This document shows, one piece after another, positions 1,488 through 41,402 of a DNA stretch of 41,763 nt. How positions within the stretch are numbered: the first letter of the stretch is position 1; each line of letters starts with the position of its first letter. The position numbers were made by a program, and so were the translations under genes. The DNA is from a virus. The notes beneath the pieces are model-generated. The model searched no databases and had not been told where the DNA came from. It saw only the letters and a list, made by a program, of their open reading frames with translations. The DNA lies in the IMG/VR virus record IMGVR_UViG_3300005987_000004, positions 1-41,763 of that record. One strand, given 5' to 3'.

Positions 1488-2106
1488 ACGCCAGAATGCT
1501 CTCCACCCGAGGCGACCGCGCGTTACCCAACACGTAACGAATGTGATGCGCCTCATAGCCAGGCCGACCAGGCTTCGCACCCTCATGCGACCAACCGAAC
1601 GACTCGTAGTTGCGGAGAATCCACTCCCAACCCTTCGCGTACCGCTTGTCGGTCACACCATCAATGTCAGCCAAACCAGGCTCATTCCAACCCTGGAACC
1701 AACCCAAGTCCACCGCGATCGCAAGACCGTGATTCGACGTGCCAGGCACCGCCACAGGCATCTGCCCCTTGCGCAGATAGTACTTGACACCATTCCAAGT
1801 GCGAGTCGAATGAGTGACGTTGATCTTAGGGTCGTACGTCGGGGTGTACCGCTCGTTGAACACCTGGACCTGACGGAGGTACGAACGGTTCGCACCAGTG
1901 CCCGACAGATCGAACCCTGTTTCCTGCTTGCAGATGATCTGCATCCACTGGAACGACTCGGCCGCAGTCGGGAACAGGTCAAGGTTCCCCACACCAGGGA
2001 AATACACGGCACGCAGGTCGCAAGGACCAAGCTTGCCGTTGACAAGGGCGTCACCGTTCCAAGAACGGGGACGCGTGACAGGTAGGTAGATCGGTGCAAG
2101 AGCCAT
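1471..2106 (-). CDS. Endolysin, peptidase M15 (VanY / L-Ala-D-Glu peptidase-like, LAS metallopeptidase)
   Basis: SNHGLAIAVDL (the SxHxxGxAxD motif) and a downstream EAHH block. Last gene of the late arm. ATG 2106 follows the GTAACG-N16 motif; a TTG alternative lies at 2112. Confidence 0.85.
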   Translation of the reverse strand: MALAPIYLPVTRPRSWNGDALVNGKLGPCDLRAVYFPGVGNLDLFPTAAESFQWMQIICKQETGFDLSGTGANRSYLRQVQVFNERYTPTYDPKINVTHSTRTWNGVKYYLRKGQMPVAVPGTSNHGLAIAVDLGWFQGWNEPGLADIDGVTDKRYAKGWEWILRNYESFGWSHEGAKPGRPGYEAHHIRYVLGNARSPRVESILAFIGAS

Positions 2107-2128
2107 CACCAAAAGCGGTGATCGTTAC
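2104..2128 (-). promoter_or_regulatory. Late-strand start-associated motif GTAACG-N16-ATG (endolysin)
   Basis: Minus strand reads GTAACGATCACCGCTTTTGGTGATG. The TAA within it is the giant-ORF stop. Confidence 0.8.
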
Positions 2129-5100
2129 GGCTGGAACCCCAAACGAGACGACGACAAAGCCAGCTCCTCCATCTCACGTTTCCGACGGGCCAACTCCGAC
2201 GCCTTCATCGAAGGCGTGACCCTCGTCACGGGAACACCCAGGATGCCGAGCGCCGAGTTCGACTGACGGTCCACACCCACCGCCGACGACGGCATCAGGC
2301 GTTCAGCCTGGGCCAACGGCGGCAACATGTTCTTCAACACATGGTTGACCCGCGGGTCCACCACAACCTGACCCTCAGCGTTCCGCTCACCCAAACCCAA
2401 CATCTCAGCCAACGAACCCAACGGACCCGACAACGGGCCAGCAGCAATGCTCTGAGGGTTCTCCGAGAACGGCACATCGTTGTACAACTGGCGGGAACCC
2501 AACACCTCCACAGGCACTCGCATCGCAGGGTTCACATACGACAACAAGCGAGGCAGATCGCCAACCTCGGCAAGCTGCTCACCCAAACGGGTGAAGCCAA
2601 GGTCGGGGCGCAGGTACAAGTCCTCACCGATCTTCACGCCACCCTGCTCATCCAACCACGACGGCATGATGTCGTTGTCGTCACCAGGCTCAGCGATATT
2701 CCGCATCAACGAGTTGTACCCCGCGTACGCCTTCGGATTCGCCCACTGATTCATGATCTGCATCGGCAAGTTCCGAGACATCCAAATCCAGAACGGCACC
2801 ACCGCACGCATGTTCTGGTCAGCCACCGACAGGTCGCGGTAATCGAACAGGAACTGCTTCACCCGTGCAGCAGCCTCGTTGATGTCAGGGGCCTGACCGT
2901 TCTTCACCGCCGACACCGCAGTGTCGTACGCCAGCATGAACCGTGAAGCCGACTCGTACGAATCGCCCACCTTCTGCGAAGCACGCAACACCTTGTTATC
3001 CAACACCTTGCCCTTGCCGACACGCAGCAGATCAGCCACCTGATCTGACGTGTGCCCGCCACCAGCAGCGAACATCGTCCGAGCAGCAACCTCAGCCACC
3101 GCACGATCAGCCTCAGGCAGCGTCGCCAGCCAGGTGTCGACGCCCTTGCCGTCCCTGATCGACTGGCGCAGGCCCTTCCACAGGCCGAACCCCTGCGTTA
3201 GCGCACGGGGGTCGGCCCCCGAAGCAACCAACACAAAGCTGTTCGACATGATGTTTCGCACATGGAAACCAGGGGACAGCGTTGCGTACGACTTGAAGAA
3301 CCTGGTGTAGGTGCCGAACAGGCGGTTCACTTCGCGGGCAAACCCAGGCTGCTCGATGCGTTGCATCGACACCAGCATGTCAGCGATCTGCCGTGGGGCC
3401 TGCAACCCTGGCAGCCCAGCCGCGTCCATTGTCTTCCACCCGTCGCGGGCCTTGGCGAACTCGACCTCCCACTTCACCGTGCCACGCTCAAGGTCGTTCA
3501 GGAACGACTGCGCCTGGGCCAGCTTCTGCCCCGAGATCAACCAATCGGCCTCCAAGTCGATAGCGTTCGCAACAACCTTCGAGATCGGGTCCTCAGGATT
3601 TGAAACGACCATTTCAAGTTCCTGACGTGCCGACTGTAACCAGTCGATCGAATCAGCGGACGCCTTCGCAGGTGCGTCCGTCAATGCCTTCTCCACGACA
3701 CCCAGTCGCTCCTGCAAACGAGGAACCGTGGTTTGCATCAGCTCATTCATCTCGTCGACGACCGCACGGGCCGTGTCGTACTTGTGGCCGACAACAGCCA
3801 ACGTCTTCTCGGTCTGCTCGATCACAGCCGAAGCCGCTTCCCGTTCACCGCGAGCGGCAACAATCGCCCCCTCACGGGCTGTGTCAACCTTCTCGTTGAA
3901 CGAGTTCATCAGCTGATAAGCGCGCTCGCGCTTCTCGGCCAGAGGGATGGCCAGCTCCTGTGGGCGCACCGCCAGCTGCATCTCAGCGATCTGCGCTTCA
4001 CGTTGTGCGGCCACCGACCGCATCGTGTCCGTGTGCTGGCGGACAGCAACAGTGTTCCCAGCCCAACCACGCCAGGCGTTCACCGTCACCGACTGTTCAA
4101 GCTCGTCGATTTCGTCCAGCAGCTTGCGGGATGGGGTACTCGCATGTGCGGCCGTCTGGCCGTCCATGCGGGACCGCACCAGGGTCGGCGAATCCGCCAG
4201 AAACGACGACACAACAGGTTCCGAGAACCTGCGCTCAGGCATGCCGCCAACAACAGGGTTCAGCGACATCTGGTGTCGCAGCGTGTCAACCCTGCGCTGC
4301 AGCTCAGCAATCTTCGCCTTACGCACCTCAGCGCCGACAGACTCGATGCGGTCTGCGGGCCGATTGGCCTGGACCTGAGCCAGGTCTTGCTCGGCTTGGC
4401 GGATACGCCAACGCTGCTGCGTCAACGCATCCTCGACAACCCTGATCTCGTCCCTGATCTGCTCGGGAGAACGCTGAGGCATCCGAGCCTGACCGCTGAG
4501 TTCTTTCAGCTCGTCGCGAAGCTGGGCCTGTCGGCCCATCGCCGTCGCACGCTCCCGCGAATCCTCCAACGCCACTTCAACGGATTGCTTCCTCGTCGGC
4601 ACTGGCTGTGCCAGCCGCTTCTCGATCGCATCAAGTTCCTCGTACAGCTTCGCCTGGCGCTCGTTACGGGCCGTGTACCGCGGGTCGCCATGACGGGAGC
4701 GAACCGACTTCAAGTCCGTACGCAACACCCGCAGCCGCTCCGTTGAGGCGTCAACCAACGCCTTTGCCTCACGAACAGCACCCTCCGCAGCCGCCACCCT
4801 GTCGGTGGCGGTCTGCGACGGAACGATCATCGAGTTCATGTCATTGACCGCCCTGGAAAGCTGCATCTCCGCTTCTTCCAGTGCCACCCCCAGGCCCGAA
4901 AGGTCAGCGGGCGTCCCTGGCACGCCAGGCTCAACGACTTCCTTTCGCATCGGAACACCGAGCCGCAGCCACGACTCATCCCCATCGACAAGGATGCGAA
5001 CCTTCGACAAGGCAGCAGCCTGCGTCTGTGGCAACGAAGCCTCGGCTGCGTTCCGCAGATCACGCAACTCTTCGGACATCGCCCGAATGTTCTGCTCCAA

Positions 5101-8100
5101 CTCCTGCTTCTGCGGGAACAGATATGGGCGAATCTCACCGTTCCGCTTGTAGTTCGGAGACGCCAGCAGACCCTCAAGGTTCTTGCGGGCCTGACCCAAC
5201 TCGTTACTGATCGACCCCATGCGGGACCGAACCTGCTTCGCCTGCTCCGCAGTCATCGGAGCCTGGAACAACGAATCAGCCTCCACCTTCGAGAACACCA
5301 ACGGGACGCCCTGGGCGTCGACAACCTGGGTGCCGTTAGGGAGGAAGAACCCAGGTTGACCGTCGGCGGACTGCGCCCGCCACAGATCAAACCTCGCCAA
5401 ATCCATGATGCCCTCATGCAACTCCTGGTCACCCAACGCGATGTCGTAGTCAACCGAGTTCTTCCGACGGCGCAAACGGTCCATGTCCTTGCGGGCGGCA
5501 GCAACGAAACTGGCGTCAGTGCCCGCAGGCACTTGCGGTGCACGCGGGCCACGCAGCGCCATCGCATCAATGTCATCAGCGGCACGCTTCAACGCGCCCG
5601 CATAGAACGACCCGACCGTCGACCCCTGCAACAGGGCGTCGACGTCAACATTCGGGTCCAACAGGCCGTGGAACAAACGCTGCTGTGCTTCGGTGCGACG
5701 GAACTCTTCGAGCAGTGTGCCAGACACCGCCTGACGCCAATCCGACGTGTCCTTCACGGTCTGCCCGACCGAACGGGCGCTGATGCGCTTCGACCGATTG
5801 AACCCACCGATCATCTCCGTCAGGAACGCCTGGACATCGTCTGCTGTGGCGCTCGCAGCGAACGGCGAGCGACCAGACGCCTTCGCCTCACGCAACCGCG
5901 CCTTCGCAGCGTCCACGCCCTGCCACCTGCCGAAGAGAGATTCGTACCACGGCTTCACCACATCGTTGCGGTAAGCGGTGTGCTTCATCTTCTTCAACAT
6001 CACCTTCGGGTCCTCGGCCGCAGCAAGGGCAGGCCCGACGTGCTGGCGAAGCGCCTCGCCGCCAGGACGGGAGAACGCTTCGTCGAACATGCGGCGCAGC
6101 TCTGCCGCCGAAGCACCAGGACGAGACGACAAGTTCGGTGCGCGACGAGTCCACTCGTCAGCGATGTCCGTCAACGCCCCCTGCGACGTGAGCAGCTGCT
6201 TCATGCGCGCATCCCAATGCCCAGCCCATCGCTTTGCTGACGCCTGCACCGTAGAACGCAGCATCGCCTCCGACGGAACCAGACCAGACCACGCCATCAT
6301 GCGGGCAGCAAGGTTGAAACGATGCTGCGTGTCCGAGATCACATAGTAGTGCTGCAACGCGTCAGCAAGCTCAGCCTTCGCCTTCGCAGGAGAGCCGTAC
6401 TGCTTCCAACGCTTCGCATCCTCGGGAGAGAACGTGAACTTGTTCTGCATCAGTTCGAGCAGATCGTCGGCACGGGAACCGTACCGCTCCACCACCTCAT
6501 TGCCCGCCTTGTTGACAACAGTGCGCTCCTTGAAGAAGAAGTCGCCAAGCTTGAACGTGCGCGTCGAGTTGCCCTGACCGAGCGTGTACTCCTTCTTTGC
6601 GAACTCGTTGATCGTGCCTCGCAGGTTGTTCAACACCGTGTTGTCCAGCTGTTGACCGTTGAACTCGCCAAGCCGCAATGCTTGGCGGGCCAGTCGGAAC
6701 GTCACCACGTCCTCCTGGGCGGTCTTGATGAGTTCTTCCAACTCGCCAACATCAACATTCAGTTGAACGGACTTGCGCTGAATCTGACGCAACTCACGCG
6801 TCTCCACCGCCCCCAGGCGACGGGCCAGGTCGTCAGCATCGGCGGCCTTGTCCAGCTGTTCGAGCAGCCCTTCCATCGCCTGCGCCAACGGCGACTGCGG
6901 ATTGATGCCACCGTAGAACTTCTCGTCACGCGCCAACACCCAGGCCGCCGCAGAACGCAGATCGGCCAACGACACAGCAGACGACGAAGAACGCACCAGC
7001 GTTCGCTCGACGGACGCACGATTCAACCCAGCAACATTCGAGGGGACAATCGGGGCGGTCGAACGGCCAGCCACACGCTTCCACCAAGAAGCCTTCGGCA
7101 TCTCATTCTTCACCCACTTCTGCATCTCGCCAGCGGTCGCAGCAGCCTTGCCAGCGCGGGAAGCGAACCCCCTGTCGGTGGGCACCAACCCCAGCGCCAT
7201 CGCCACGTCATCGACCGCCTTGTCGCCGCTACGGGTGCCAGCAGACACCCGCTCCCAGTTCGCTGCGATCACTTCGTTGAACTCAACCATTCGAGCCTGC
7301 TGGCGGCCCAGCTCCGTGATCTCCTCACCAACCTTGTCCAGCTGACGCTTTAACTCCTTCACCGACACACCAGGCGTGTCACCCAACAGGGCACCCACAT
7401 CGTCAAACAGGCCATCAAGCAGACGCTGGGCACGCAACGCCCCAGCAGCAGACGCCTCAGCAACCTCAGGCACAGCACCATCGAACAAGCGGTGCAACTC
7501 ATCGTACGACGCCTGCAACTTCACCGAAGCCGAACCCAACGCCTTCTGCAACCCATCAACCTCAGGGCGCAAATTCGACGCAATTGTCGCTGCATCAAAC
7601 CGCTGATTCTCGATCGCCTTCAACCGCTGAGCAATCGCCGAACCACTGTTGTCCAGCTCGTCCCGCAGCTTCGCAACCGCAGCAGACGCCTCAGCGTGAG
7701 CGTCGGCGTGCTGCTTCGCAAACGACTTCACCCGACCAACCTGGGCAGCAACAGCGTCCTCATCGAACACCTCGCGGCGAACAAGCTTCGAGTCCAACGT
7801 GTCCATCACACCAACAGCCTTCAACGCACCGTAGCGGGCGGCCAGACCAGCCTGCTCGGCATGCTGCATCGCATACCGTTCCAGAATCGTCACGATGTCC
7901 GTCTCGAAGAAATCGCCACTGAACCCACCAGCGCGGGCCAGCTCATTCAACCGATCGACATACAGGTCTTCCTTCGTCAGCTTCGTGCCGAACCAGTCGA
8001 CCGACTCGCCAGCATTCACCTTCGACGCCAGCGAACGATGGTTGAACACTGACAGAGGGTCCCCATCGTCGAAACCCTTCTTCAACTCACCAAGGTACGG

Positions 8101-16309: not shown

Positions 16310-16337
16310 CAAACGGCCCCCTTTCGGGGGCCGTTTG
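16310..16337. terminator. Intrinsic terminator downstream of the major capsid gene
   Basis: CAAACGGCCCCC-TTTC-GGGGGCCGTTTG. The 26-nt core is identical to that of the 1431-1458 hairpin. Confidence 0.8.
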
Positions 16338-16403
16338 TCGTTCCCACCACAGGAGACGAGTAGATTGCCTTGCTTTACCCCAAAGGGAAGGGAGGAAGGC
16401 CGA

Positions 16404-17342
16404 TCAGGCGGTCTTGCCAGTCAGCTTGCCCAGGCGCTTGCGGTTCGACACCGTCAGGTTGCCGTACGCCGTGATGAGCGAGTAGCGGGCATCCATGTTC
16501 TCAGGACGCACGAACGGGGTCTGAGTGAACCAGCGGTCGCTGTGACCAACCAGCTTGATGTACTTCGAGTTCAGGAAGTACATGGTGCCAGAGGTGCAAG
16601 CGGGGTCGTAGACCACGGGAGCACCCTTGAACATCAGGTTCTGGAAACCCAGGTTCGCCATCTTGACATCCGAGTAGCGGACCTGAGGGGTCAGCAGCGA
16701 CTCAAACTTCTCGAACAGCGTCTGAGTCGTCAGGGCGATGTCAGGCTGGTCCTTACCGCGAGACACACTGTTGTACGCCGTACGCATGTACGCCTCGGTC
16801 AGCGCACCACCAGTGTTCTCCTCATAGGACCTCCACCAGGTGTTGTCCAAAGCCGACGAGTCGATACCACCGACAGTGTTGCCCGATTCGACCAGGTTGC
16901 CCAGGCCGTTGAAGTCCTTCGAGCTGTTGCCGCTACCGTCGGCGAACAGCATCGTGTTCAGACCTTCCTTCATCGTCTCTTCCGCCTGGAACACCTTCGC
17001 TTCCAGCAGATCGAGGACGGCCTGTTCGCCGTTGTTCTTCGCCTCTTCGATGCCACTGATGGCAATCGAAGTGGCCAGCTGACGCCACTCGTACTCCGCG
17101 GCAGTGATGCCTTCCTGCGGGGTCAGCTCGATCGGGTCGTAACCCGAGTACGAACCGAAGGTCGAGTTGTCAGCATAGAGCAGCGGCTCGATGATCTTCG
17201 TGCCGCCACGCAGCTTCACCTGACCCTTTTCCTTGAGGTACCAGGTCAGTACACGGTCGTTGAAGACGTTGTCGGTCAGCTTCTTCTGGTAGTTCGCCAG
17301 AGTAGTTGAGATGAGTGCATCAAAAGAGGCATTGCCAGCCAT
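16404..17342 (-). CDS. Major capsid protein (HK97-fold type)
   Basis: AAGGAG SD, position after the scaffold, a terminator downstream, and an N-terminal pattern (ALISTTL..Y...L.DNVF...L..YL) typical of capsid families. Confidence 0.85.
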   Translation of the reverse strand: MAGNASFDALISTTLANYQKKLTDNVFNDRVLTWYLKEKGQVKLRGGTKIIEPLLYADNSTFGSYSGYDPIELTPQEGITAAEYEWRQLATSIAISGIEEAKNNGEQAVLDLLEAKVFQAEETMKEGLNTMLFADGSGNSSKDFNGLGNLVESGNTVGGIDSSALDNTWWRSYEENTGGALTEAYMRTAYNSVSRGKDQPDIALTTQTLFEKFESLLTPQVRYSDVKMANLGFQNLMFKGAPVVYDPACTSGTMYFLNSKYIKLVGHSDRWFTQTPFVRPENMDARYSLITAYGNLTVSNRKRLGKLTGKTA

Positions 17343-17360
17343 GAGAGGCTCCTTGTTGGG

Positions 17361-18224
17361 TTAGCTTTCCAACTGCCGTTTCGCAGCGTTGAAAGCGTCT
17401 GAAAGTGAACGGACCTCACCCACCTGCGTCGTCCCATTCGGCTGTGCGGCAGAGCCGCCCGAAACGATCGCTGCACTCTTCTTCGCGGTTCGCTGCACAG
17501 TGGCTTGGCGGACCTGCTCTTCCAGACGCTGCTTCTCAGCAAGCACACGGTCGAAAGCGAGTTGCTTGTATGCGACCTCAAGATCGGGTTGCTGCGTGCG
17601 AATCGCATGAGCAATCACGTCTTGCGGGTTGAAATCAGGGAATGCGGTTTGCAGCTGCTGAATCTGGTTCCGCAACCGCATGTCAGATTCGGCCTGCTCG
17701 ATGCGCTCCAACCGCTGTGCAATCAAATCCAGACGGGGGTCTGAAACTGCTGCGGGAGAAGAACTGCCCCAACCATCATCCGACTCGGCCCAAGGGTCGA
17801 ACTGATCGTTCGCCACGGCTGTCGGCTGCTGCGTCACTTTCGGCTGAATGCCATACTGTGAGGCAAGAAGGGCAATGGTGCCCTCGGGGTCCACATCTAG
17901 CGCGGCCTTGACGGCGGAAGCCCAACCAAGGTCATTACGCTGCGCTGCCAACTCCTGTGTCTTGCGGGTGTAATCCGCCTGACGCTGGTAGCCAGCAACA
18001 GCCTCAGCCAACGGAACAAAGTCCTCCTGCCCCTCGATCTTGACAGGAACCCGAAAGTTCCCATACTGATCGAAGTCCAGAACATCGAACTGCTCCTCAA
18101 CTTCGGCCCCGTCCAGTTCTTCGACTTGTCCGTCAACAACGGGGTCTTCAATCTGGACATCATCTTCGACGAATACGTCGGTCATTACGCTCCTTGTGCG
18201 AGTCCCCACAACGGGGTTGCTCAT
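17361..18224 (-). CDS. Scaffolding protein (alternative start ATG 18185 with a strong AAGGAG SD)
   Basis: Acidic N-terminus and helical Q/A/E-rich body, between the portal and the capsid. Confidence 0.7.
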   Translation of the reverse strand: MSNPVVGTRTRSVMTDVFVEDDVQIEDPVVDGQVEELDGAEVEEQFDVLDFDQYGNFRVPVKIEGQEDFVPLAEAVAGYQRQADYTRKTQELAAQRNDLGWASAVKAALDVDPEGTIALLASQYGIQPKVTQQPTAVANDQFDPWAESDDGWGSSSPAAVSDPRLDLIAQRLERIEQAESDMRLRNQIQQLQTAFPDFNPQDVIAHAIRTQQPDLEVAYKQLAFDRVLAEKQRLEEQVRQATVQRTAKKSAAIVSGGSAAQPNGTTQVGEVRSLSDAFNAAKRQLES

Positions 18225-18246
18225 CACCTGTAGTCAGGGCCGTTAC
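18222..18246 (-). promoter_or_regulatory. Late-strand start-associated motif (scaffold)
   Basis: Minus strand reads GTAACGGCCCTGACTACAGGTGATG. The TAA within it is the portal stop. Confidence 0.8.
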
Positions 18247-19973
18247 ACCTGCGGAGCGCCACCGCCCAACATCGCCATAATCTCAGGCGGCACACCACCC
18301 TCAGGTGGCATGCCCTCGGGAGGCATGCCCTCCTCGGGGGGCATGCCCTCAGGACCCATCGGCTGCGGCGGGGGAGCAAGGAACGAATCAGGGTTCTTCA
18401 CCCCAAACCCGAACTGCAACACATGAACCGCTAACGCCCGCGGGTCAACCACCTGCATCTCAATGAACGGTGCCATCGCATCGACAAGCTGCAACGCGGA
18501 CTGACGACGGAACGACTCGTTGTTCGGCTGAGTGGACCCAGCCTCCACCTCGAAGTCGAACTCGCCAGCGATGTAATCGGCATCGAACGTCACCCAAACA
18601 GGCTCACCGTCCTGACCGAAAATGCGGGCAACCTGCTCGCCCTCCATGAACTGCTGTGCCAGCTGCACCATCCGAGACGCAACCGCCGAGATCGAACCCT
18701 CGATCGTCGCCAGCTTGTCAGCGGCACGGGCGTTCGACGCATCAGCGATGATCGACGCCTCCGTAGCGGTGCGGCGAATCTCAGGCATCTGCCCGTTCAT
18801 GTACTCAGACACACCCGAAATGCCCGTGATGTCATCACGAATCAGGTTCGACTGGTTGTAGAACTCGGGCGGAGTGATCGTCGCCTGCACAGGCTGCATC
18901 GCATCCTGCAACGGGCCATCGCCCTTCACGGGAATCATCGCATTGTCAACATCCGATTCCAGCGCCGCACGACCATCCGCATCGAACCTGTCCTCATCGA
19001 ACAGGTACTTGCGGGCGTACCGCTTGCGGTGATTCATCATCTGCGTGCGAGTCTCGTTCAGCTCCCGCTGCAACGGCTCGATCGCCTCAAGATCACCCAT
19101 CGGATAGAACTCGTCAGGGATGTCGTAGTTCCTGATCATCACGAACGGATGACCAAACGCGTACGGCATCGGCTGCGGGGGGACCAGGAAATGCTCGCAC
19201 GAATCAGCAAAGATGCTGATCGTGCGCTTCCGCAGATCGTAGAACTCCCAAACCTCAACAAACCCTTCGTCCTTGTCGTACGGGTCCTGCAACGTCCCGT
19301 CAGACGCCAAACGCTTCCACGAAGTCGGCTGCACGTTGTCACGCGCCTTCTTCGCATACCGCTTATCCGACTTCACATCCTTGATCGCACGACGAACCCG
19401 CTGAGCAATCCAACCAATGTCTTCCATCGACGTCGCATCAGGGTCCACGTACACGTCGAACGGCGACACCCGCTCCACAAACGGGCGGTCCTCAGTGATG
19501 ACCACCGACGGCATCACATCGTTGCCCTCGACCGCCTCATCCGAGATGTCACCCTCGGACCCGACCTGCTCCTCTTCAACGTAGCGGTATCCGCACTTCA
19601 ACCAGCCATGCCCGAAGATCAAGAAGTCCTTCACGGCCCGTCGGAACGACGGCTTCACGTTGTAATGCCGCCACCAGTAGTTGATGACCGCTTCCGTGAT
19701 GATCGCCCGAGGCGCATCATCAGGCTTCGTCGCGTTCACAGCGATCTTCGGATGGTTCACCGCCACGGACGGTGCGATCACGTTGATCGTCTGGAAACAG
19801 ATGTTGACGAGCAACCTGTCCTCGTTCGACAGATACTCGTAGTGCTTGCCGCGGTACAGGCGATTCAGGCGACGCCAAGTGTCGTCGTAGCCTTCATCGT
19901 CCCGCCAACGCTTTGAAGCGTTGATCTTCGAGTGGTAGCGGGAAACGATGTCAGAGTTGGACGGTCGGGGCAT
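18243..19973 (-). CDS. Portal protein
   Basis: 576 aa, upstream of the scaffold and capsid and downstream of the large terminase. C-terminal (E)GMPP repeats. Confidence 0.8.
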   Translation of the reverse strand: MPRPSNSDIVSRYHSKINASKRWRDDEGYDDTWRRLNRLYRGKHYEYLSNEDRLLVNICFQTINVIAPSVAVNHPKIAVNATKPDDAPRAIITEAVINYWWRHYNVKPSFRRAVKDFLIFGHGWLKCGYRYVEEEQVGSEGDISDEAVEGNDVMPSVVITEDRPFVERVSPFDVYVDPDATSMEDIGWIAQRVRRAIKDVKSDKRYAKKARDNVQPTSWKRLASDGTLQDPYDKDEGFVEVWEFYDLRKRTISIFADSCEHFLVPPQPMPYAFGHPFVMIRNYDIPDEFYPMGDLEAIEPLQRELNETRTQMMNHRKRYARKYLFDEDRFDADGRAALESDVDNAMIPVKGDGPLQDAMQPVQATITPPEFYNQSNLIRDDITGISGVSEYMNGQMPEIRRTATEASIIADASNARAADKLATIEGSISAVASRMVQLAQQFMEGEQVARIFGQDGEPVWVTFDADYIAGEFDFEVEAGSTQPNNESFRRQSALQLVDAMAPFIEMQVVDPRALAVHVLQFGFGVKNPDSFLAPPPQPMGPEGMPPEEGMPPEGMPPEGGVPPEIMAMLGGGAPQV

Positions 19974-20021
19974 TGGTCCACCAAACTGTGTAAGGGCGCA
20001 CTATCGGGTGCGGCGCGGACG

Positions 20022-20057
20022 AATGCCCGCACGTCGGGCAATGCCCGCACGTCGGGC
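20022..20057. repeat. Tandem duplication (2 x 18 bp) of AATGCCCGCACGTCGGGC, each unit a small palindrome
   Basis: Read directly from the sequence. Lies in the 147-bp gap upstream of the portal start. Confidence 0.9.
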
Positions 20058-20120
20058 ATGGTGCAGTACGGCGGTCGGGAACCCGCCACTGTCCGTAGTC
20101 AATGACACCTGTCACCACCA

Positions 20121-20336
20121 TCAAGCGACCTTGGTGTTCGACTTTGCGATGCCGAAACCAAGCGCACCAAGCACCAAAGCGACCTTCGCCTGGACGCCCG
20201 ACTCAACAAACCCCCAGCCAGCCAGATCGAGGGCAGTCTCAACGGCAAACGCCGTTGCCAGTACACCGTAGATGGTGTCCCGAATCTTCACGGGAATGCG
20301 CTGGAAAAGTTCGCTGGTCTGCGTGATCGGGTTCAT
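20121..20336 (-). CDS. Small two-TM membrane protein (holin candidate)
   Basis: Hydrophobic segments IYGVLATAFAV... and VALVLGALGFGIA. Confidence 0.55.
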   Translation of the reverse strand: MNPITQTSELFQRIPVKIRDTIYGVLATAFAVETALDLAGWGFVESGVQAKVALVLGALGFGIAKSNTKVA

Positions 20337-20629
20337 ACGTGCTGCCTTTCAGAAGCGTGGGCGTGGAACGCCAGGTGACCTGCAACCAGGTCGTTCAAAT
20401 GGTCAAGCTTTGCGTCGTGACGGGCGAGATGAACATCCAGGCTGTCGAAGCGGCTCACCAACGCCGCTGTCGTCGCACCCAACTCGTCCTTCACAACAAC
20501 CGCCGCGGACAAGCGGGCGTCCTGGGCGGCCGCATGTTGCGCAGTGTTCTTCTCATCTATCCGTTTCAGGAACCACATCACGGGTCCACCGATCAACGCG
20601 ACAGCAACAGCAGCAATCAGCGCCTCCAT
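20333..20629 (-). CDS. N-terminal-TM, coiled-coil protein
   Basis: MEALIAAVAVALIGGPVMWFL followed by a helical region. TGATG coupling to the upstream gene. Confidence 0.6.
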   Translation of the reverse strand: MEALIAAVAVALIGGPVMWFLKRIDEKNTAQHAAAQDARLSAAVVVKDELGATTAALVSRFDSLDVHLARHDAKLDHLNDLVAGHLAFHAHASERQHV

Positions 20630-20856
20630 CACACCCACCTCGCCCCAACAGGCTCGACCTCCCGACCCGTTTCCTTCGCCCGATCAACGATCTCCCGTTG
20701 ACGCTCACCAAAGGTCGGACCATGGAACGTTTCCTTACCATGCGAGAAACCGATCGAAATGCCACCCAGGTGGCACTTGAAGCAAATCTTCCCACGGCGA
20801 GGAATCACGTCAAACGTGAAAGTGGCCCCACATGTTTCACAAATCGCTGCACCCAT
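20629..20856 (-). CDS. Zinc-ribbon protein
   Basis: CETCG...CFKCH. Preceded by GTAACG-N15-ATG. Confidence 0.6.
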   Translation of the reverse strand: MGAAICETCGATFTFDVIPRRGKICFKCHLGGISIGFSHGKETFHGPTFGERQREIVDRAKETGREVEPVGARWV

Positions 20857-20877
20857 CACCCAAAGGCGAGTCGTTAC
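20854..20877 (-). promoter_or_regulatory. Late-strand start-associated motif, N15 variant (zinc-ribbon CDS)
   Basis: Minus strand reads GTAACGACTCGCCTTTGGGTGATG. The TAA within it is the large-terminase stop. Confidence 0.75.
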
Positions 20878-22466
20878 ATCCGTTTCGACACGTTGTACGA
20901 ACCGATAGGAATCCGTTCGTACGCCGCATCATTCGTAACCGACAAACTCTCAAACCAAGACAGCGAAAACTTCGGAGGCGGGGCCTCCTGCTTATACTGA
21001 GGCAACCACACGAACTTCAACATCTGGTAGCAGATCGCCAACGACATCACCCTGTCGTCGTGAGGGGAGCCATGCATCTTCCCGTTCGTGTCCCGCACAA
21101 ACGTCTTCAACTCGCCGATCGTCCACTGGTCCACCAAGTCCAGCTCACCATCGCGCAGCGACCCAGCCAGCTCGTCAACCGCCAACGGCTTCGACGCCGA
21201 CGTCGTCCGCCAACCCAAAATCTCCGTCTCTGACGGCACGCGCTGCCCCAGGCGGCGGGTGCGGTACAGATTCCGATACCCGTACCGTTGCATCGCCTTC
21301 AACGTCGTCAAACCATGGTTGTTGTTCTCCACACCAACCAAACACCCGTTGAACCACCAGCCGATCTCAGCCAGCAGGTAGCCGAAACGGTCAGGGTCGA
21401 TGTGCCCATGCCAATGGGCAACCACAGCTTTCGACTGGGCGTCGATCACATGAACGGACGAGTAGTCGCCGTGGCCCAAGCCCTCGGCGACGTCCGCCCC
21501 AATCACATACACACCCTTCGGCTCAGGGAACGCCCACACAGCAAACTCGCCACCATCGGACTCGATGAACTCGCCCGAGCGGCGGGCCTCGAACTTCATG
21601 AACCCCCGCACAGGGTCAACCGTCTCGATCTTCGACAGACGCTTCACGTCGAACACAGGGTTGCCTGACATGATGAATGCTTCCTCAGGGTCCCGCGGGT
21701 ACTCCTGATGCAGCTGCCACGATGGCATGTTACGAACCTTCGTTTCGTACCACGCCTCGTCACGATCACCAGCCGACCACGGCCAGAAAATCCCCTTGAA
21801 GTTGTTCGTCCCCGTCTGTGACCCCACCCACAACTGGTGGAAGAAATCGCCAGCACCGTTCGCCGTTGACAACCCGATCACACGACCACCCACGTCAGCG
21901 ATCGGCTCGATCGAAGCCCACGCCTCCTCAGGGTTCGGCAAGAACGCCCACTCATCCACAATCACCAGATACACCGACTCGCCACGCGCAGGGTCGTTGT
22001 TACTGGGCAACGATTCGATCGCCGAATCGTTGTCAAACGTCATCTTCAACTGGTTGTTCGACGTCACCTGCGGGCCACGCAACAGCATCCACTTCGGCAG
22101 ATACTTGAACCCGTACTTCGCTTTCGCCAACAACTTCGTCGCTTCACGCTCCGTCTTCGACAACATGACAATGAACCTGTCAGGCCAGAAGAACGCCAAC
22201 CAGAACGCGTACGCAGCCGCCAACGTAGAAAACCCGATCTGACGGGCCTTCAACGCAACCGAATAACGGTTGCTCATCCACTCACGAATCGTCTCCCGCT
22301 GCGCATGACGCATCTCAAAGATGATGCGACCACGCTCGGGATGCTTGATATACCAGTACTTCGTACAGAAATAGGTGAACGCATCCACCAGCTCATCAAC
22401 GGACGCCGAAGGCGGGCCTTTGCAGGCCCGCCACTCGCGTTCGTCAAGGAGTTCTTGAAGGTCCAA
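20874..22466 (-). CDS. Terminase large subunit
   Basis: ARQIGFST ATPase block, VYLVIVDEWAF Walker B, and a C-terminal nuclease-like GADVAEG...DYSSVHV. TTG start. Confidence 0.9.
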   Translation of the reverse strand: MDLQELLDEREWRACKGPPSASVDELVDAFTYFCTKYWYIKHPERGRIIFEMRHAQRETIREWMSNRYSVALKARQIGFSTLAAAYAFWLAFFWPDRFIVMLSKTEREATKLLAKAKYGFKYLPKWMLLRGPQVTSNNQLKMTFDNDSAIESLPSNNDPARGESVYLVIVDEWAFLPNPEEAWASIEPIADVGGRVIGLSTANGAGDFFHQLWVGSQTGTNNFKGIFWPWSAGDRDEAWYETKVRNMPSWQLHQEYPRDPEEAFIMSGNPVFDVKRLSKIETVDPVRGFMKFEARRSGEFIESDGGEFAVWAFPEPKGVYVIGADVAEGLGHGDYSSVHVIDAQSKAVVAHWHGHIDPDRFGYLLAEIGWWFNGCLVGVENNNHGLTTLKAMQRYGYRNLYRTRRLGQRVPSETEILGWRTTSASKPLAVDELAGSLRDGELDLVDQWTIGELKTFVRDTNGKMHGSPHDDRVMSLAICYQMLKFVWLPQYKQEAPPPKFSLSWFESLSVTNDAAYERIPIGSYNVSKRM

Positions 22467-22472
22467 CAGGAA

Positions 22473-22946
22473 TCAGCTGGTCCGACGAACCTTCGCCCAG
22501 CACCACAGATCAACAGGAGTACCCGCCGCGACGTTGTCCACGTCGAACTGCAACTCGTCACCAGCAGCGAACACAGTGTCCGCAGCAGCCGCCGAGAACG
22601 CATACGGGGCAGCAGCCGTCGAACTCGACGTCTCACCACCATCAATCGTCAGCTTCGTCGCAAGAATGGTCGTACCATTCTTGTTGACGTCCAGCGTAGT
22701 CAGGTTCGCATTGGCGGTCTTCACATTCGCACCAACATCCAGAACCTTGCACGAAAACGGCAGCGCCAGCGCTACGACCTCAGCCGCAGCCGACACGTTG
22801 CCCGTCACAGCCTTCACGAAGATGAACTCCTCCGTCGCCGCGATCGAAGCCATGTCAGCAGGCGGCAGAGCAGCAGCAGACGAACCGCCCACAATGCCCT
22901 GTAGCGCCGTGTACGCCAGCTTCGCTTCACCTTCGGTAATTGCCAT
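22473..22946 (-). CDS. Hypothetical beta-rich protein between the small and large terminase genes
   Basis: Strong AAGGAG SD before ATG 22946. Ala/Thr/Val-rich. Confidence 0.7.
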   Translation of the reverse strand: MAITEGEAKLAYTALQGIVGGSSAAALPPADMASIAATEEFIFVKAVTGNVSAAAEVVALALPFSCKVLDVGANVKTANANLTTLDVNKNGTTILATKLTIDGGETSSSTAAAPYAFSAAAADTVFAAGDELQFDVDNVAAGTPVDLWCWAKVRRTS

Positions 22947-23002
22947 GGGGGACTCCTTGAGAGTTAGGGGAGAAACAGTGATCTCACACAAACCCCCAGC
23001 CG

Positions 23003-23452
23003 TTACGCTCCAACCACCTCAGCAAAACCAGAACGCCGACCATCCCGCTCCGCCGACGCCCGAGACGCAATCAAAGCATCCAACTCCTCATCAGACAACT
23101 CAGCCACCGACCGAGTCGTCTGCACCTGCAACGGAGGCGGCACCATCCGACCAGTAGCCCTCAACCACGTCTCCGCAGCCTTGTTATCCCCATCCAACCC
23201 ACGCTGATACAGGCTATCCAGGAGTCCCTGCGTCCTCTCAGGAGACATCTGCACCGTATCCACACGCAACCGCCACTGCTCCCGAAAATCAGCCCGCTTC
23301 TCCCAATTCCGCAACGTCTCCGCAGCAACCCCCACCCCAGCCGCGTACTTATTCTTCGACGAAGGCACCCGCTCAGACGGCACAGTACACAACCAATCCA
23401 AATACGCCAACTGCCGAGAATCCAAACCACCAGTACCCGCTGTCGTAGCCAT
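23003..23452 (-). CDS. Terminase small subunit candidate
   Basis: First late gene. HTH-like AAGVGVAAETLRNWEKR and DNKAAETWLRATG. Preceded by the GTAACG-N16-ATG motif. Confidence 0.65.
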   Translation of the reverse strand: MATTAGTGGLDSRQLAYLDWLCTVPSERVPSSKNKYAAGVGVAAETLRNWEKRADFREQWRLRVDTVQMSPERTQGLLDSLYQRGLDGDNKAAETWLRATGRMVPPPLQVQTTRSVAELSDEELDALIASRASAERDGRRSGFAEVVGA

Positions 23453-23474
23453 CACCACAAGCCCCACCCGTTAC
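23450..23474 (-). promoter_or_regulatory. Late-strand start-associated motif (small terminase)
   Basis: Minus strand reads GTTTGTAACGGGTGGGGCTTGTGGTGATG. Confidence 0.8.
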
Positions 23475-23508
23475 AAACTACTTGCACACTACAAGTAACG
23501 TAACGCCT

Positions 23509-23527
23509 GGGGGGGGAAGGGGGGGGG
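23509..23527 (+). repeat. Homopolymer pair G8-AA-G9
   Basis: Read directly from the sequence. Confidence 0.95.
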
Positions 23528-23542
23528 CAAGAGCAAGACAAG

Positions 23543-23575
23543 CACCGTGAGCCGAGCTAAGGCTCGCTCACGGTG
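23543..23575. other. Stem-loop CACCGTGAGCCGAGC-TAA-GGCTCGCTCACGGTG
   Basis: 15-nt arms with one bulge, read directly from the sequence. Confidence 0.8.
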
Positions 23576-23712
23576 ATAGCAACGACAGTCCCGACCAACG
23601 GGAGGGACCCAAACCGTTACAAAACACCATATCCAACCCCCAGGGACCCAACCACTTCCAACCACCCACACCGCCACAGCCTGAGGGACTCCTTACTTTG
23701 GGTAGGGGCACA

Positions 23713-23732
23713 CCCCACCCCACCCCCACCCC
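23713..23732 (-). repeat. Canonical G-quadruplex motif on the minus strand (G4-T-G5-T-G4-T-G4)
   Basis: The plus strand reads CCCCACCCCACCCCCACCCC. Confidence 0.85.
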
Positions 23733-23863
23733 TTGCCATAACACCAGGTCAAAGCACATAACCTGCCTTACATGACCCCACCCAGGAAATTGCCCGATTA
23801 CTAGTAGTACAAGCGGTGTTCTCTCACGGGTCAATGGGGTTCGTGGGGGCGCTTGTATCAGGG

Positions 23864-23881
23864 TTGAAACGTGCGTTTCAA
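23864..23881. promoter_or_regulatory. Palindrome copy 1: TTGAAAC-GTGC-GTTTCAA
   Basis: Perfect 7-bp arms, 29 nt upstream of ATG 23910. Confidence 0.85.
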
Positions 23882-23909: not shown

Positions 23910-24323
23910 ATGTCGAAGAACAAGACGACGTTTGGTGTGTTCGAGTCGAAGATCGTTGAGGGTGACAAGTGCATCCTGGTCGGTTGGTGGGGTGCTGCTG
24001 AGGAAGCGGTGTCGTTGAAGCTGTCGGCTTCGGCGTATGCTGCTGAGGCGGTGAAGGTGTCGAAGCTGTACACTGCTGACAGTATCCGTGTGTCGATCGG
24101 CTACTGCCTGCGGGCGATGAAGGCTGGTTGGGGGTTGGGTGAGTTCGTGTCGTTCGAGCACTTGAAGGACTGTGTGGCGTCGCTGTCAACGAAGAAGGGC
24201 AAGGGGAAGATCGACCCCGTGCAGCGTGTGGCGGCGTCGGCGCACAACCTGACGTCGGTGCAGCTGCGTGCCCTGTTGGCCGACCTCGCTGAGGAGATGG
24301 GCTACAAGCTCGTCAAGAAGTGA
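23910..24323 (+). CDS. Hypothetical protein, first early gene (self-contained unit)
   Basis: CTACCACAAGGAG upstream of the ATG, a palindrome upstream and a terminator downstream. G-ending codon bias unlike most of the arm. Confidence 0.75.
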   Translation: MSKNKTTFGVFESKIVEGDKCILVGWWGAAEEAVSLKLSASAYAAEAVKVSKLYTADSIRVSIGYCLRAMKAGWGLGEFVSFEHLKDCVASLSTKKGKGKIDPVQRVAASAHNLTSVQLRALLADLAEEMGYKLVKK

Positions 24324-24336
24324 GCGTGGCCTGTTC

Positions 24337-24366
24337 GTGGCCCGCACCTTTCGGGGTGCGGGCCAC
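24337..24366 (+). terminator. Stem-loop, putative intrinsic terminator
   Basis: GTGGCCCGCACC-loop-GGTGCGGGCCAC, 14 nt after the stop. Confidence 0.6.
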
Positions 24367-24448
24367 GTTGGCGTTTCCAGCGTGTTTCACATGTCATCGG
24401 CTGTTGTTGGTGGCGTGTGACATGCACTGTGAATGCGGTGTGTGACGG

Positions 24449-24466
24449 TTGAAACGTTCGTTTCAA
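24449..24466. promoter_or_regulatory. Palindrome copy 2: TTGAAAC-GTTC-GTTTCAA
   Basis: Perfect arms. Lies after terminator 24337-24366 and before the next gene. Confidence 0.85.
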
Positions 24467-24504
24467 CTGGGCAAGTTTCCTACTACATGAGAGATGAGAC
24501 AGTG

Positions 24505-24663
24505 ATGAGTCGTAGTGTTGAGTTGGAGTTGTCGCGCCGTGATGTTGAGACGGTGGACCGTGGTGAGCATGATCGTTCGTGGGCTGATCGGTTGATCGCC
24601 TTGAATGATGATTACCGCCACTATCATGGTGGTGCGGTGCGTGTGCAGCGGGTGTGGTCATGA
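24505..24663 (+). CDS. Small hypothetical protein (alternative start 24487)
   Basis: ORF track frame. Its stop overlaps the next ATG (ATGA). Confidence 0.55.
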   Translation: MSRSVELELSRRDVETVDRGEHDRSWADRLIALNDDYRHYHGGAVRVQRVWS

Positions 24664-25091
24664 GTGGCCTGGCTGTTGGTGCGCGTGTGCGGGTGAAGGA
24701 TTCGCACGGTACGGCGTCTGCTGGTCGCACGGGTGAGATCGTCGGTCGGCGTGGCGGTTCTCGGTACGCTTGCGGTCCTCGCTTCTATTGGCGTGTGCGG
24801 TTGGATGATCTGGCTTCGACCTGGTTGTATCCTGATTCGTCGTTGGAGTTGCTGGGCGATGTGTGGGGTCCGCCGACTGGTCCGATGGTGTTCACGTCGG
24901 CCGAGTACGTCGCGTTCTACGGTGGGTGCGGGTTGCCGTGGGCCGTGAACGAACTGTGGTCGGCTGTCGACCCGCTGACAACGCTCGTCCTGCACCTGTG
25001 TGACGATGATGGTGTCGAGCGTTCGGCGTTGGTGTCGTTGCGTCGGGCCGCGCTCGATCTCTACATGCGGTCGTTGGGCGGTGAGGGCTGA
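24660..25091 (+). CDS. Hypothetical protein with an SH3/KOW-like N-terminus
   Basis: ATGA coupling. VGARVRVKD...GRTGEIVG motif. Confidence 0.65.
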   Translation: MSGLAVGARVRVKDSHGTASAGRTGEIVGRRGGSRYACGPRFYWRVRLDDLASTWLYPDSSLELLGDVWGPPTGPMVFTSAEYVAFYGGCGLPWAVNELWSAVDPLTTLVLHLCDDDGVERSALVSLRRAALDLYMRSLGGEG

Positions 25092-25285
25092 TGCGTTGGC
25101 TGTTGCTGGTTGCGTGTTGGGCTGGTTTCGTTGTCGTTGCGATCAACGTCAACGAAGCAACCTCGTTGTCGGGGTGTGTTCCTGTGGGGTCCGAGTTGGT
25201 GCCCGAGTTGGGTGTGGCTGTGTCGCCGCAGGGTCGTGTGGTTGAAACGCGGGTTTCAACTGGCGTCAGGTGGTGCCAGCCGTGA
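25091..25285 (+). CDS. Small protein with an N-terminal hydrophobic/signal-like segment
   Basis: MRWLLLVACWAGFVVVAI. TGATG coupling. Confidence 0.55.
   Translation: MRWLLLVACWAGFVVVAINVNEATSLSGCVPVGSELVPELGVAVSPQGRVVETRVSTGVRWCQP
25242..25259. promoter_or_regulatory. Palindrome copy 3: TTGAAAC-GCGG-GTTTCAA
   Basis: Perfect arms. Lies inside the 3' end of CDS 25091-25285, 23 nt before GTG 25282. Confidence 0.8.
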
Positions 25286-25470
25286 CCCGCATCATGCAAC
25301 CAGGCGACGCCTGCCTTGTCCTCTTCAATGGCGAATACCGTCGCGGCGTCGTTGTGAATGTGGAGGCGAGTGGGCCTTGGCCTGTTGACGTTCAGATCGA
25401 CGGGGAGCAGGATTTGCTTCCGTACAACTACGACCACAACGAGTGCACATGGTTGGAAGGTGAATTGTGA
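25282..25470 (+). CDS. Small SH3-like hypothetical protein
   Basis: GTGA coupling. PGDACLVLFNGEYRRGVVVNV. Confidence 0.55.
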   Translation: MTRIMQPGDACLVLFNGEYRRGVVVNVEASGPWPVDVQIDGEQDLLPYNYDHNECTWLEGEL

Positions 25471-25679
25471 GCGCTGATTTGTATGGTGCGTTCGCTGACC
25501 CGATCTTCCATCTGCGTTCACGTCGTGCGAGTGTGGCTCGCAGGCTGGTGGAGTTGGAGGCCCGCAAATGGTGCGCTTCTCCGTCGTTGACGGGTCGTGC
25601 GTGTGTGCAGTTGCGGCGCACGTTCTACACGCTGGCAGCCCGTGAGGTTGCCCTGCTTGACGCCCTTGGCGTCGCCTAG
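25467..25679 (+). CDS. Small hypothetical protein
   Basis: GTGA coupling. Followed by stem-loop 25695-25724. Confidence 0.55.
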   Translation: MSADLYGAFADPIFHLRSRRASVARRLVELEARKWCASPSLTGRACVQLRRTFYTLAAREVALLDALGVA

Positions 25680-25694
25680 TTGTAGCTCGACTAC

Positions 25695-25724: not shown

Positions 25725-25769
25725 CTGGATGCGCTACAGCATCAACTACCACAACAAGGAGAAACAATC

Positions 25770-26503: not shown

Positions 26504-26513
26504 ACCAACGACC

Positions 26514-40925: not shown

Positions 40926-41110
40926 GCAAGCAGCTGACCGTTCAGCCAGAGACGATGCGGAGCATCAGACTGCAAGGCGTCAACGACGATGAGTCGAGAC
41001 GCTTCCTGGCCGTCGTGTACGCCTGTTCCTGCCACCAGAAAGACGGTTGGTGGCTCTGCCAGTACCACCAGGGCTTCGACGACGGAGTGGAGGAAGCCCG
41101 TGATACCTGA
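40922..41110 (+). CDS. Small Cys/His protein
   Basis: CSCH...CQYH. ATGA coupling. Confidence 0.55.
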   Translation: MSKQLTVQPETMRSIRLQGVNDDESRRFLAVVYACSCHQKDGWWLCQYHQGFDDGVEEARDT

Positions 41111-41402
41111 TCGTCGGGTCCCGCCCATCACCGAAACCGAATGGCTCATGATGGCCCCAGGCGAAACCCCCGACCTGTCAACCGACCACATGAACGCCGT
41201 GCTCGAAGCCATCGAACAGCTACCCGATGACGAACGAGAAATCCTCGAAGCCTACTTCTACGAACGGGCCTCCTACAGCGAACTTGCCAAACGAACCGAA
41301 CGCAACAAAGCGTACGCCTGGCGCAAAGTCCATCGCATCCTCAACAAACTCGAACCCCAACTCCGCAACAACCCCGTACTCATCGAAAGGTACAAGCTGT
41401 GA
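41100..41402 (+). CDS. Sigma-70 region-4-like HTH protein (start GTG 41100 or ATG 41148)
   Basis: LPDDEREILEAYFYERASYSELAKRTERNKAYAWRKVHRILNKL matches the region 4.2 / ECF-type HTH pattern. Confidence 0.6.
   Translation: MIPDRRVPPITETEWLMMAPGETPDLSTDHMNAVLEAIEQLPDDEREILEAYFYERASYSELAKRTERNKAYAWRKVHRILNKLEPQLRNNPVLIERYKL

Follow-up and report, generated by a model that had tools for sequence, protein, structure and literature searches.

The stretch of DNA analysed here (the window, 41,763 nt) is IMG/VR virus record IMGVR_UViG_3300005987_000004, a podovirus-like temperate phage genome of about 60% GC. Its late genes on the minus strand carry a short repeat, GTAACG-N16-ATG, in which the hexamer (the box) stands at a rigid distance from an ATG. 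These repeats are probably phage-specific late promoters at which transcription usually starts at the ATG and yields leaderless mRNAs. The promoter module would consist of a recognition box of 6-7 bp (GTAACG in the window; TAGAACG, GGGAACA or TAGAACA in sister clades), 8-11 poorly conserved bases running into a T/A-rich stretch, and a pyrimidine/purine initiation point 15-17 nt past the AAC of the box. At most copies the initiating purine would be either the A of the ATG, which gives a leaderless transcript, or the G that precedes it in TG↓ATG, which gives a leader of 1 nt (arrows mark initiation points). Coincidence of the transcription start with the ATG would account for the rigid distance between box and ATG and for the lack of a Shine-Dalgarno (SD) sequence at a proper spacing. 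A module located further upstream would give a leader with a normal SD, which in the window is predicted for the scaffold gene and for coding sequence (CDS) 22946. Eight late-strand promoters would split the 22-kb late region into units, with one of them restarting transcription right after the capsid terminator, and two more boxes face the opposite way in the divergent control region. Host RNA polymerase would transcribe from the module, and a conserved sigma region-4-only protein (encoded at 41100-41402) would bind the box. The features are listed in Table 1.

The initial annotation described a GTAACG-N16-ATG repeat on the late strand, with one N15 copy, and the repeat is real. We counted six GTAACG-N16-ATG sites, every one on the minus strand, against 0.10 expected. 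The identical six sites have GTAACG-N13-GTGATG against 0.00 expected in 100 shuffles, and the seventh copy (20854-20877, minus strand) has N15 spacing. The shuffled control proposed in that annotation thus puts the spacing far above chance. The window has 21 copies of the hexamer itself, where 10.45 +/- 3.25 are expected, and 15 of these copies lie on the minus strand. A weight matrix made from relatives only recovered exactly the six N16 window sites with scores of 15-24 bits, and no other window site on either strand scored above 8 bits. GTG directly precedes the ATG in all seven copies, as had been noted. The four copies said to be extended do read TTTGTAACG, with TTT before GTAACG, at 23474, 16304, 11852 and 9358, and the same extended sequence is found at 23620. 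In three cases the TAA within the box is indeed the upstream stop codon, that of TerL (20874), the portal gene (18243) and the giant open reading frame (ORF) (2125). The extra GTAACG copies reported at 23001-23006 and 23615-23620 (minus strand) and at 23495-23505 (plus strand) are also present. The second codon at the window sites is Ala or Ser in six of seven cases and Gly in one. The consensus of the motif sites from -16 to -4 contains no GGAGG and the start is ATG, i.e., a functionally spaced SD is missing as in leaderless genes. Late genes without the motif have AAGGAG, GGGAGG or GAGGG at 6-8 nt, or overlapping stop and start codons.

About 600 portal relatives were found in IMG/VR. We analysed 80 portal-centred loci (44-62% GC), 80 helicase-centred loci and, from a more distant clade, 74 loci with the TerS-like gene at the centre. 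By sequence comparison, the module is conserved on the late strand only, across a large group (hundreds) of uncultured podophage contigs. The 80 portal-centred loci contain 295 distinct GTAACG contexts; the ATG is located at N16 in 82, at N15 in 10 and at N17 in 11, and TGATG is found at N14 in 77. No full motif was found on the non-late strand of these 80 loci. The same set of gene families repeatedly has the motif upstream, namely the first late gene, the zinc-ribbon gene (75 aa) that follows TerL, a post-capsid gene of 76 aa and a gene of 144 aa. The ATG at such ATG-type sites is predicted to be the genuine start codon. Second codons in relatives encode small residues, and the CxxC of the zinc ribbon begins at codon 6 in the window and at codons 5-8 across relatives. 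With N-termini of different length (MAGTPAYS, MSDIQAVPAYS and MTPNAVPAHS) the motif tracks the ATG and not the conserved protein core.

The closest annotated genome is MW202803.1 (portal identity 43%), and no near-identical phage was found in the GenBank phage collection. MW202803.1 shows the same synteny with a palindromic box, GTTTC-N4-5-GAAAC. Two genes have this box 12 nt from their ATG; at a third gene the distance is 23 nt, with an SD in between. The zinc-ribbon gene between TerL and portal (window 20629-20856, minus strand; CxxC..CFxCH..GIRLGFxHGKEDFHGPT) is conserved group-wide and the module is always present there. Its match by position in MW202803.1 (38887-39204) was labelled 'DNA-directed RNA polymerase' by the depositor.

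The seven copies had been assigned to gene starts, which holds for six of them. The exception is the scaffold copy (18222-18246), orthologous to a leadered site that all relatives have kept. A search for boxes with distant starts detected the same module (box and T/A-rich stretch) ahead of SD-led genes, 30-55 nt upstream of their ATGs. About 60 distinct scaffold sites from all clades read box - N9-11 - TATATAG/TACGTAG/ATATGTAG - AGCAACC - N3-9 - GGACTCT - AGGAG - N5-9 - ATG/GTG, the leader after the module being AGAGCAACC..GGACTCT-AGGAG-ATG. The window scaffold copy is the same leadered site (GTAACGgccctgactacagGTGATGAGCAACCccgttgtGGGGACTCgcacAAGGAGcgtaATG), and the scaffold gene is therefore predicted to start at the SD-led ATG 18185, while ATG 18224 would belong to the promoter core. 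CDS 22946, which was thought to lack the motif, has a copy (GTAACG-N13-GTGAGA) upstream at 23006; its ATG is 55 nt from the AAC of the box with an SD in between. The motif is thus separable from the start codon, as seen in the scaffold leader, at other SD-led genes and at the 23006 copy. The scaffold leader, (A/T)GAGCAACC-N3-9-GGACTC(T)-(A)GGAG (window 18183-18224, minus strand; about 60 loci), is nearly invariant though the boxes differ by clade. A weak GAG/CUC plus CC/GG stem (CCCC/GGGG in the window) is possible in it, and folding energy gave no support for a hairpin in the window leader (z 0.18). The leader could be an operator for scaffold/capsid expression.

The aligned cores of the two site types are ..ATTAGT↓ATGG (ATG-type) and ..ATATGT↓AGAG (leadered), with WWGT↓A and a Y-1/R+1 step in common. 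The first A of the scaffold leader lies at AAC+17 with TAACG boxes, at +15/16 with GAACA and at +16 with GAACG. In parallel, the A of the ATG lies at AAC+17, at 15 and at 15-16, respectively. This clade-specific 2-nt difference is mirrored in both site types, as is expected if the distance from box to start is fixed. In every clade the module stands at the head of the late operon, and the window box at 16304 adjoins the strong capsid terminator. Several relatives have GC-rich runs followed by T-tracts in the post-capsid flank, which look terminator-like (by inspection only). Sequence comparison shows the conservation, strand specificity, spacing and box co-variation of the module and the existence of its leadered variants. 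Among the options in the initial annotation, a late promoter and a binding site for a late regulator are favoured by the co-varying inverted boxes, the leadered copies, the operon-head and post-terminator positions and the tracking of box class by the sigma region-4 protein, the first and last of which are described below.

The box differs by clade: GTAACG (window), TAGAACG, GGGAACA, AGGAACA and TAGAACA. One subgroup has TAGAACG-N15-ATG. Distant clades have GGGAACA, AGGAACA or TAGAACA with the ATG 15 nt past the AAC, and GAAC followed at N15 by an ORF-opening ATG was found 84 times on the late strand versus 18 on the other strand. The distant clades are without TGATG and have (T/C)ATT(A/T)(A/G)T-ATG-G instead, with G at +4 even when the second residue is Glu, Val or Asp. 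Sites in sister clades have retained box, ATG and rigid spacing, and their sequence up to the ATG is ...TATTAGT-ATG, ...AATGGC-ATG or ...ATTTGC-ATG. In every clade the divergent control region, which separates the first early gene from the first late gene, has opposite-facing boxes that match the late box of that phage, e.g., CGTTACnCGTTAC with GTAACG, GTTCCCTnnGTTCCCT with GGGAACA, and GTTCTA with TAGAACA. Phages with a TAAC late box have inverted TAAC copies in 22 of 22 control regions, just one of which also has an inverted GAAC; in those with a GAAC late box, nearly all control regions have inverted GAAC copies. A shared clade-specific recognition factor would be the simplest explanation of this co-variation. 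Pairing between RNAs would explain it poorly, as the box variants of a single phage would mispair (GTTCCCT versus TAGAACA).

The order of elements in the divergent region (window 23475-23870, both strands) is conserved: early SD block GCGACGACAGGAG, long variable hairpin, GGCCCCTAnCC, tandem inverted boxes and late box. GGCCCCTAnCC is a C/G run (window 23506-23540). In relatives the box of the first late gene lies inside an inverted repeat with arms that vary by phage (ACAGGGCACC/GGTGTCCTGT and GGCAAGATC/GATCTTGCC); it may be an operator. Public gene calls on identical contigs include a 63-aa Gly/Trp-rich ORF (23568-23759, minus strand) that spans the 23620 box and looks spurious.

The candidate box-binding factor (41100-41402) matches Pfam Sigma70_r4_2 (3.4e-8), NCBIfam sigma70-ECF and the FliA region 4 in PDB, and it contains region 4 only. 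Such a protein is conserved in 64 of the 80 helicase-centred loci. Its putative recognition helix goes with the box class: (K/R)AKS(H/Y)AWRK was found with GAAC in 15 of 15 cases, and SK(P/V)HAWR(L/I) or NKAYAWRK with TAAC in 8 of 8. Pfam, PHROG and PDB sequence matches revealed no RNA polymerase gene among the ORFs scanned (late genes and most of the larger early-strand ORFs), and host RNA polymerase is implied for this reason. Two ORFs considered as RNA polymerase candidates were rejected: the 671-aa ORF is an amidoligase (PF12224 in homologues), and the giant ORF is conserved only C-terminally (~450 aa), shows nothing RNA polymerase-like in that part and lacks a DxDxD-type core.

Several points weigh against the promoter interpretation. 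The geometry is unusual: the box would span about -22 to -17, with the T/A-rich stretch between -8 and -1, and there is no -10 element at -12 to -7 and no -35 element at -35 to -30. The initiation point itself is placed from the Y/R step and the leader onset. Some window copies have G-rich SD-like bases inside N16, which could be useful in read-through transcripts alone. In layout the module is similar to the promoters of single-subunit RNA polymerases, but a polymerase gene was not found among the ORFs scanned. A factor with region 4 only cannot melt DNA by itself, and in many relatives the sigma region-4 domain is fused to DUF1599. MW202803.1 has no sigma region-4 protein. The structure model of the factor is of low confidence (predicted local distance difference test, pLDDT, 67), and its fold hits, although all to sigma region 4, are not significant (Foldseek E >= 1.5). 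The helix-box association is attractive but unproven, being correlative and confounded by clade and phylogeny. In the fusions, which are about 255 aa long, the sigma region-4 part is N-terminal to DUF1599. The window has sigma region-4 (41100-41402) and DUF1599 (41-535) as separate genes with a 102-aa gene between them.

Some of the features above could also result from RNA processing. In that case the box would be read in polycistronic RNA, and a phage or host endoribonuclease would cut 15-17 nt downstream to give leaderless mRNAs and the mature scaffold/capsid 5' end. Processing would explain the equal distance to the ATG and to the AGAGCAACC leader as well as the T/A-rich, single-strand-like stretch before the cut, and the non-canonical promoter geometry would no longer be a problem. 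We consider it unlikely, however. The first late gene bears the module, and no other conserved late-strand promoter is evident in the ~150-nt control region; one copy comes directly after a strong terminator; the opposite-facing, co-varying boxes and a sigma-type DNA-binding protein fit DNA recognition better; and no candidate nuclease is evident. A different arrangement would make the box a T4 MotA-like activator site ~25-29 bp upstream of the start, with a T/A-rich hexamer (TATTAG or TATATA) as the true -10 element and transcription starting 5-7 nt past the position of the ATG. The ATG-type transcripts would then be without their own start codon, including that of the first late gene, for which no other promoter is evident. 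This arrangement leaves it unexplained why the ATG stays with the module when indels change the N-terminus, and by inspection the box-to-hexamer distance varies by 3-4 nt between site types. It is workable for the SD-led scaffold gene and CDS 22946, the hexamers resemble TAnnnT/TATAAT, and their spacing of 8-11 bp from the box is near the commonly quoted 12 +/- 1 bp of T4 middle promoters. We nonetheless regard such an activator box as rather improbable.

The box could also act in RNA as a translation-initiation operator, if a phage RNA-binding factor read it 15-17 nt upstream of SD-less AUGs and recruited the ribosome, with the inverted boxes sequestering the first box. The rigid box-AUG spacing, the lack of a properly spaced SD at most sites and the stop codons in up to three frames around the module are in keeping with such a role. 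At the first late gene the box lies in hairpins with stems that vary between phages and yet stay complementary (by inspection; z -3 to -4.5). A general hairpin around the box was rejected, since strong folding is confined to that gene and is absent elsewhere (mean z -0.56), and the hairpin is not in the core motif for the same reason. The leadered variants put the module 30-55 nt from an SD-led ATG, where it would have no role in translation; the pairing of anti-box and box fails within single phages as mentioned above; and the box would resemble sigma -35 elements only by chance. Taken together, these points make a translation operator quite improbable. The initial annotation favoured a ribosome contact through base pairing between GGUGAU and the AUCACC that immediately precedes the anti-SD core on its 5' side. 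The 16S 3' tail, an established sequence, does contain AUCAC, to which GUGAU is complementary, and all seven window copies have GTGATG. In the relatives, GTGATG/TGATG is conserved only in the GTAACG and TAGAACG clades, and sister clades keep the module without TGATG. An element restricted to particular clades does not support the anti-SD pairing idea, and among GTAACG-clade sites themselves just 76% have G at -3. The pairing would overlap the AUG with an effective spacing of 0 to ~2 nt, and given the known SD spacing such a pairing cannot place that AUG in the P site. It also leaves the box and its co-variation unexplained, and we judge it very improbable. Two other translational schemes were discarded. 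An upstream ORF ending at the TGA of TGATG has no start codon in frame (by inspection), and reinitiation after the TAA of the box is inapplicable to the first gene or to the four copies with the upstream stop elsewhere.

Late promoters of other phages provide the closest parallels to the predicted late promoters. T4 late promoters (TATAAATA, with gp55/gp33) and those of SPO1 (gp28, gp33/34) are used by host RNA polymerase with phage sigma-like factors. As in those phages, a short phage-specific consensus is found ahead of numerous late genes, all on the same strand, without the -35/-10 pair of host promoters; a phage sigma-related protein is present and sites occur within a long late block. 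The differences are that the box here is at about -22 to -17 and not at -10; the factor has region 4 only while gp55 is region-2-like; most copies abut the start codon; and the box diversifies between clades. Promoters of the T7-group single-subunit RNA polymerases span ~23 contiguous conserved bp (-17 to +6) and have ...CACTATAG↓G. They share with the module an upstream specificity element, a T/A-rich stretch before a purine start, often TATAG↓G (TAGAACGAATCGCCTATAG↓GTGATG here), and many late-gene copies. When the module was examined for this layout, the T/A-rich stretch before the Y/R step was present and the central 6-8 bp were unconserved. T7 promoters differ in that they are not tied to start codons, and here no RNA polymerase gene was found and the middle of the module is unconserved. 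T4 middle promoters combine a MotA box at -30 with a sigma-70 -10 element, and AsiA carries out sigma appropriation. The likeness is that a phage box replaces the -35 element nearer to a T/A-rich element and that a small phage protein would supply recognition. No MotA or AsiA homologues were detected here, the T4 geometry would exclude the ATG from the transcript, and the protein found here is sigma region-4-like.

Sigma-D promoters are GTAACA/G-N16-CGAT in M. abscessus and GTAACA/G-N17-18-GAT in C. glutamicum (PMC13537577). Their -35 hexamer is identical to the window box, and GGAAC and GAAC of sister clades are typical -35 cores of extracytoplasmic function (ECF) sigma factors, for which a G(G/T/A)AAC-type element is characteristic and is found in the boxes; the phage protein matches Sigma70_r4_2/region 4. 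The module differs from ECF promoters in having no conserved -10 (CGAT/CGTC) at N16-17, where the ATG is located; the GAT of the window clade begins after N15, and across clades nothing but ATGG is conserved at the ECF -10 position. In an ECF promoter the start lies 6-8 nt beyond the -10; by that geometry transcription here would begin ~15 nt within the genes. The factor here is without region 2. The initial annotation drew a comparison with the start-associated sequence of cluster K mycobacteriophages, a 13-bp element (GGGATAGGAGCCC) with the SD core AGGAG inside, 3-7 bp from the start, in the non-structural right arm (PMC3203893). Both are asymmetric one-orientation repeats at a subset of starts with ATG preferred and the upstream stop sometimes inside, and the function is unproven in both. 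The likeness is superficial and does not extend to sequence, SD or distance: the box here is 16 nt away, has no SD, precedes late structural genes and is also found far from starts. Thermus phage P23-45 reportedly makes leaderless transcripts of middle and late genes. Leaderless transcripts are described as common in mycobacteria in one report (PMC4633059). Leaderless systems have in common with the module a promoter element at a fixed distance from the ATG, no SD and a preference for ATG. Theirs is a TANNNT -10 element 6-7 nt upstream of the start codon, and positions -12 to -7 are unconserved here. In a by-hand check against position matrices, none of the canonical ECF, sigma-70, sigma-54, T4 late and Bacteroidetes geometries puts the start at or before the ATG. 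The geometry fits neither sigma-70, ECF, sigma-54 nor T4 late promoters and looks most like a T7-type promoter without the polymerase.

The literature searched contains no description of the motif, and there is a modest chance that the recognition mechanism itself is new. A more specific proposal is that the sigma region-4-only protein, free or DUF1599-fused, redirects host RNA polymerase to promoters without -35/-10 elements that start at late start codons. We offer it tentatively and hold it to be doubtful. In such promoters the box would lie near -20 and a T/A-rich stretch would run right up to the start; they would represent either new promoter recognition or sigma appropriation. If the promoter interpretation is true, many small promoters at start codons would run the late genes of an abundant uncultured group, and a widespread set of uncultured, probably DNA-hypermodifying phages would have a largely leaderless late transcriptome. 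Late gene starts and transcription units of phage genomes from metagenomes could then be called by a simple rule, one that in the window would correct the scaffold start and explain the SD-less genes. The box lies where no known class of bacterial promoter would have it, and a phage polymerase was not found; mapping the starts could therefore reveal a new steering of host RNA polymerase. The co-varying box/sigma-4 pairs across clades would be a natural series for the evolution of recognition specificity and could supply orthogonal promoter parts.

Table 1. Features of the window. Promoter assignments and start points are predictions; arrows mark predicted initiation points.
Feature	Position	Strand	Description
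Late genes	23452 to 1471	minus	TerS-like, TerL, zinc-ribbon, portal, scaffold, capsid, SU10-type adaptor, tail proteins, 2403-aa virion protein, VanY endolysin
Early genes	23871 through window end to ~1487	plus	Amidoligase, GATase-like, integrase, PD-(D/E)XK nuclease, DnaB-like helicase, exonuclease, AEP primase, RusA, sigma region-4, DUF1599 protein
P1, TTTGTAACG-N13-GTG↓ATG	23450..23474	minus	First late gene, TerS-like, 149 aa, ATG 23452; predicted leaderless
Leadered variant, GTAACG-N13-GTG↓AGATCAC (GTAACG-N13-GTGAGATCAC)	22982..23006	minus	Predicted start near 22984; AAGGAG in 5' untranslated region, then CDS 22946
N15 module	20854..20877	minus	75-aa zinc-ribbon gene, ATG 20856; TAA of box is TerL stop
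Scaffold module and leader, GTAACG-N13-GTG↓ATGAGCAACC..GGGGACTC..AAGGAG-ATG(18185)	18183..18246	minus	ATG at 18224 is predicted initiation point, not start codon
Intrinsic terminator hairpin	16311..16336	minus	After capsid gene; folding free energy -26.7 kcal/mol, z -4.5; then GTTTGCATTT and directly the next box
Module	16280..16304	minus	85-aa post-capsid gene, ATG 16282
Module	11828..11852	minus	179-aa gene, ATG 11830
Module	9334..9358	minus	Giant 2403-aa virion protein gene, ATG 9336
Module	2104..2128	minus	VanY-type endolysin gene, ATG 2106; TAA of box is giant ORF stop
Extra late-strand box, TTTTGTAACG (23615-23620), no ATG	23543..23620	minus	Strong hairpin 23543-23575 and U-rich tail downstream; may be a short non-coding transcript or attenuator
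Two overlapping boxes, GTAACGTAACG	23495..23505	plus	Face early operon, G-run next; counterpart of tandem inverted boxes in all relatives
Candidate box-binding factor	41100..41402	plus	100-aa sigma-70 region-4-only helix-turn-helix protein; GTG start, SD GGAGGAAG

In the endolysin copy (2106-2122, minus strand) the spacer opens with ATCACC, the exact complement of the GGTGAT at the start codon. The two could form a 6-bp stem with loop GCTTTT, and ATCACC also mimics the 16S 3' tail. Using the endolysin as a probe for related loci gave no matches, and no known RNA families or tRNAs were found. The exact TerS-like protein was found in four contigs (two Logan run assemblies and two JGI metagenomes).

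The early strand encodes an amidoligase (26831-28846), a class-II glutamine amidotransferase-like protein (28902-29978) and a DUF1599 protein ('nucleotide modification associated domain 1', 41-535), all on the plus strand; together they have the look of a module for hypermodifying DNA bases. A DNA polymerase gene was not recognised; the replication genes seen are just those for the DnaB-like helicase, the AEP primase and the exonuclease. The tyrosine integrase gene (32730-33785, plus strand) lies in the middle of the early-strand block and not at a genome end. At ~24000-26600 the GC skew flips its sign (+0.25 versus ~-0.1 to -0.2 elsewhere) and the coding signal is ambiguous on both strands, with overlapping ORFs of low third-position GC.

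The 2403-aa virion protein (2125-9336, minus strand) has counterparts of 2086-2191 aa in relatives. Only its C-terminal ~450 aa are well conserved (YTxxFK, PGFxVRN, LFDY and PFWxWMSRNxPxQ), and the remainder is poorly aligned and gappy. A related capsid gene (44-46% identity) was found in six genome-collection contigs, three of which come from bins assigned to Acidimicrobiia (Ilumatobacter, Acidimicrobiales), a weak hint of an actinobacterial host range for the wider phage group.

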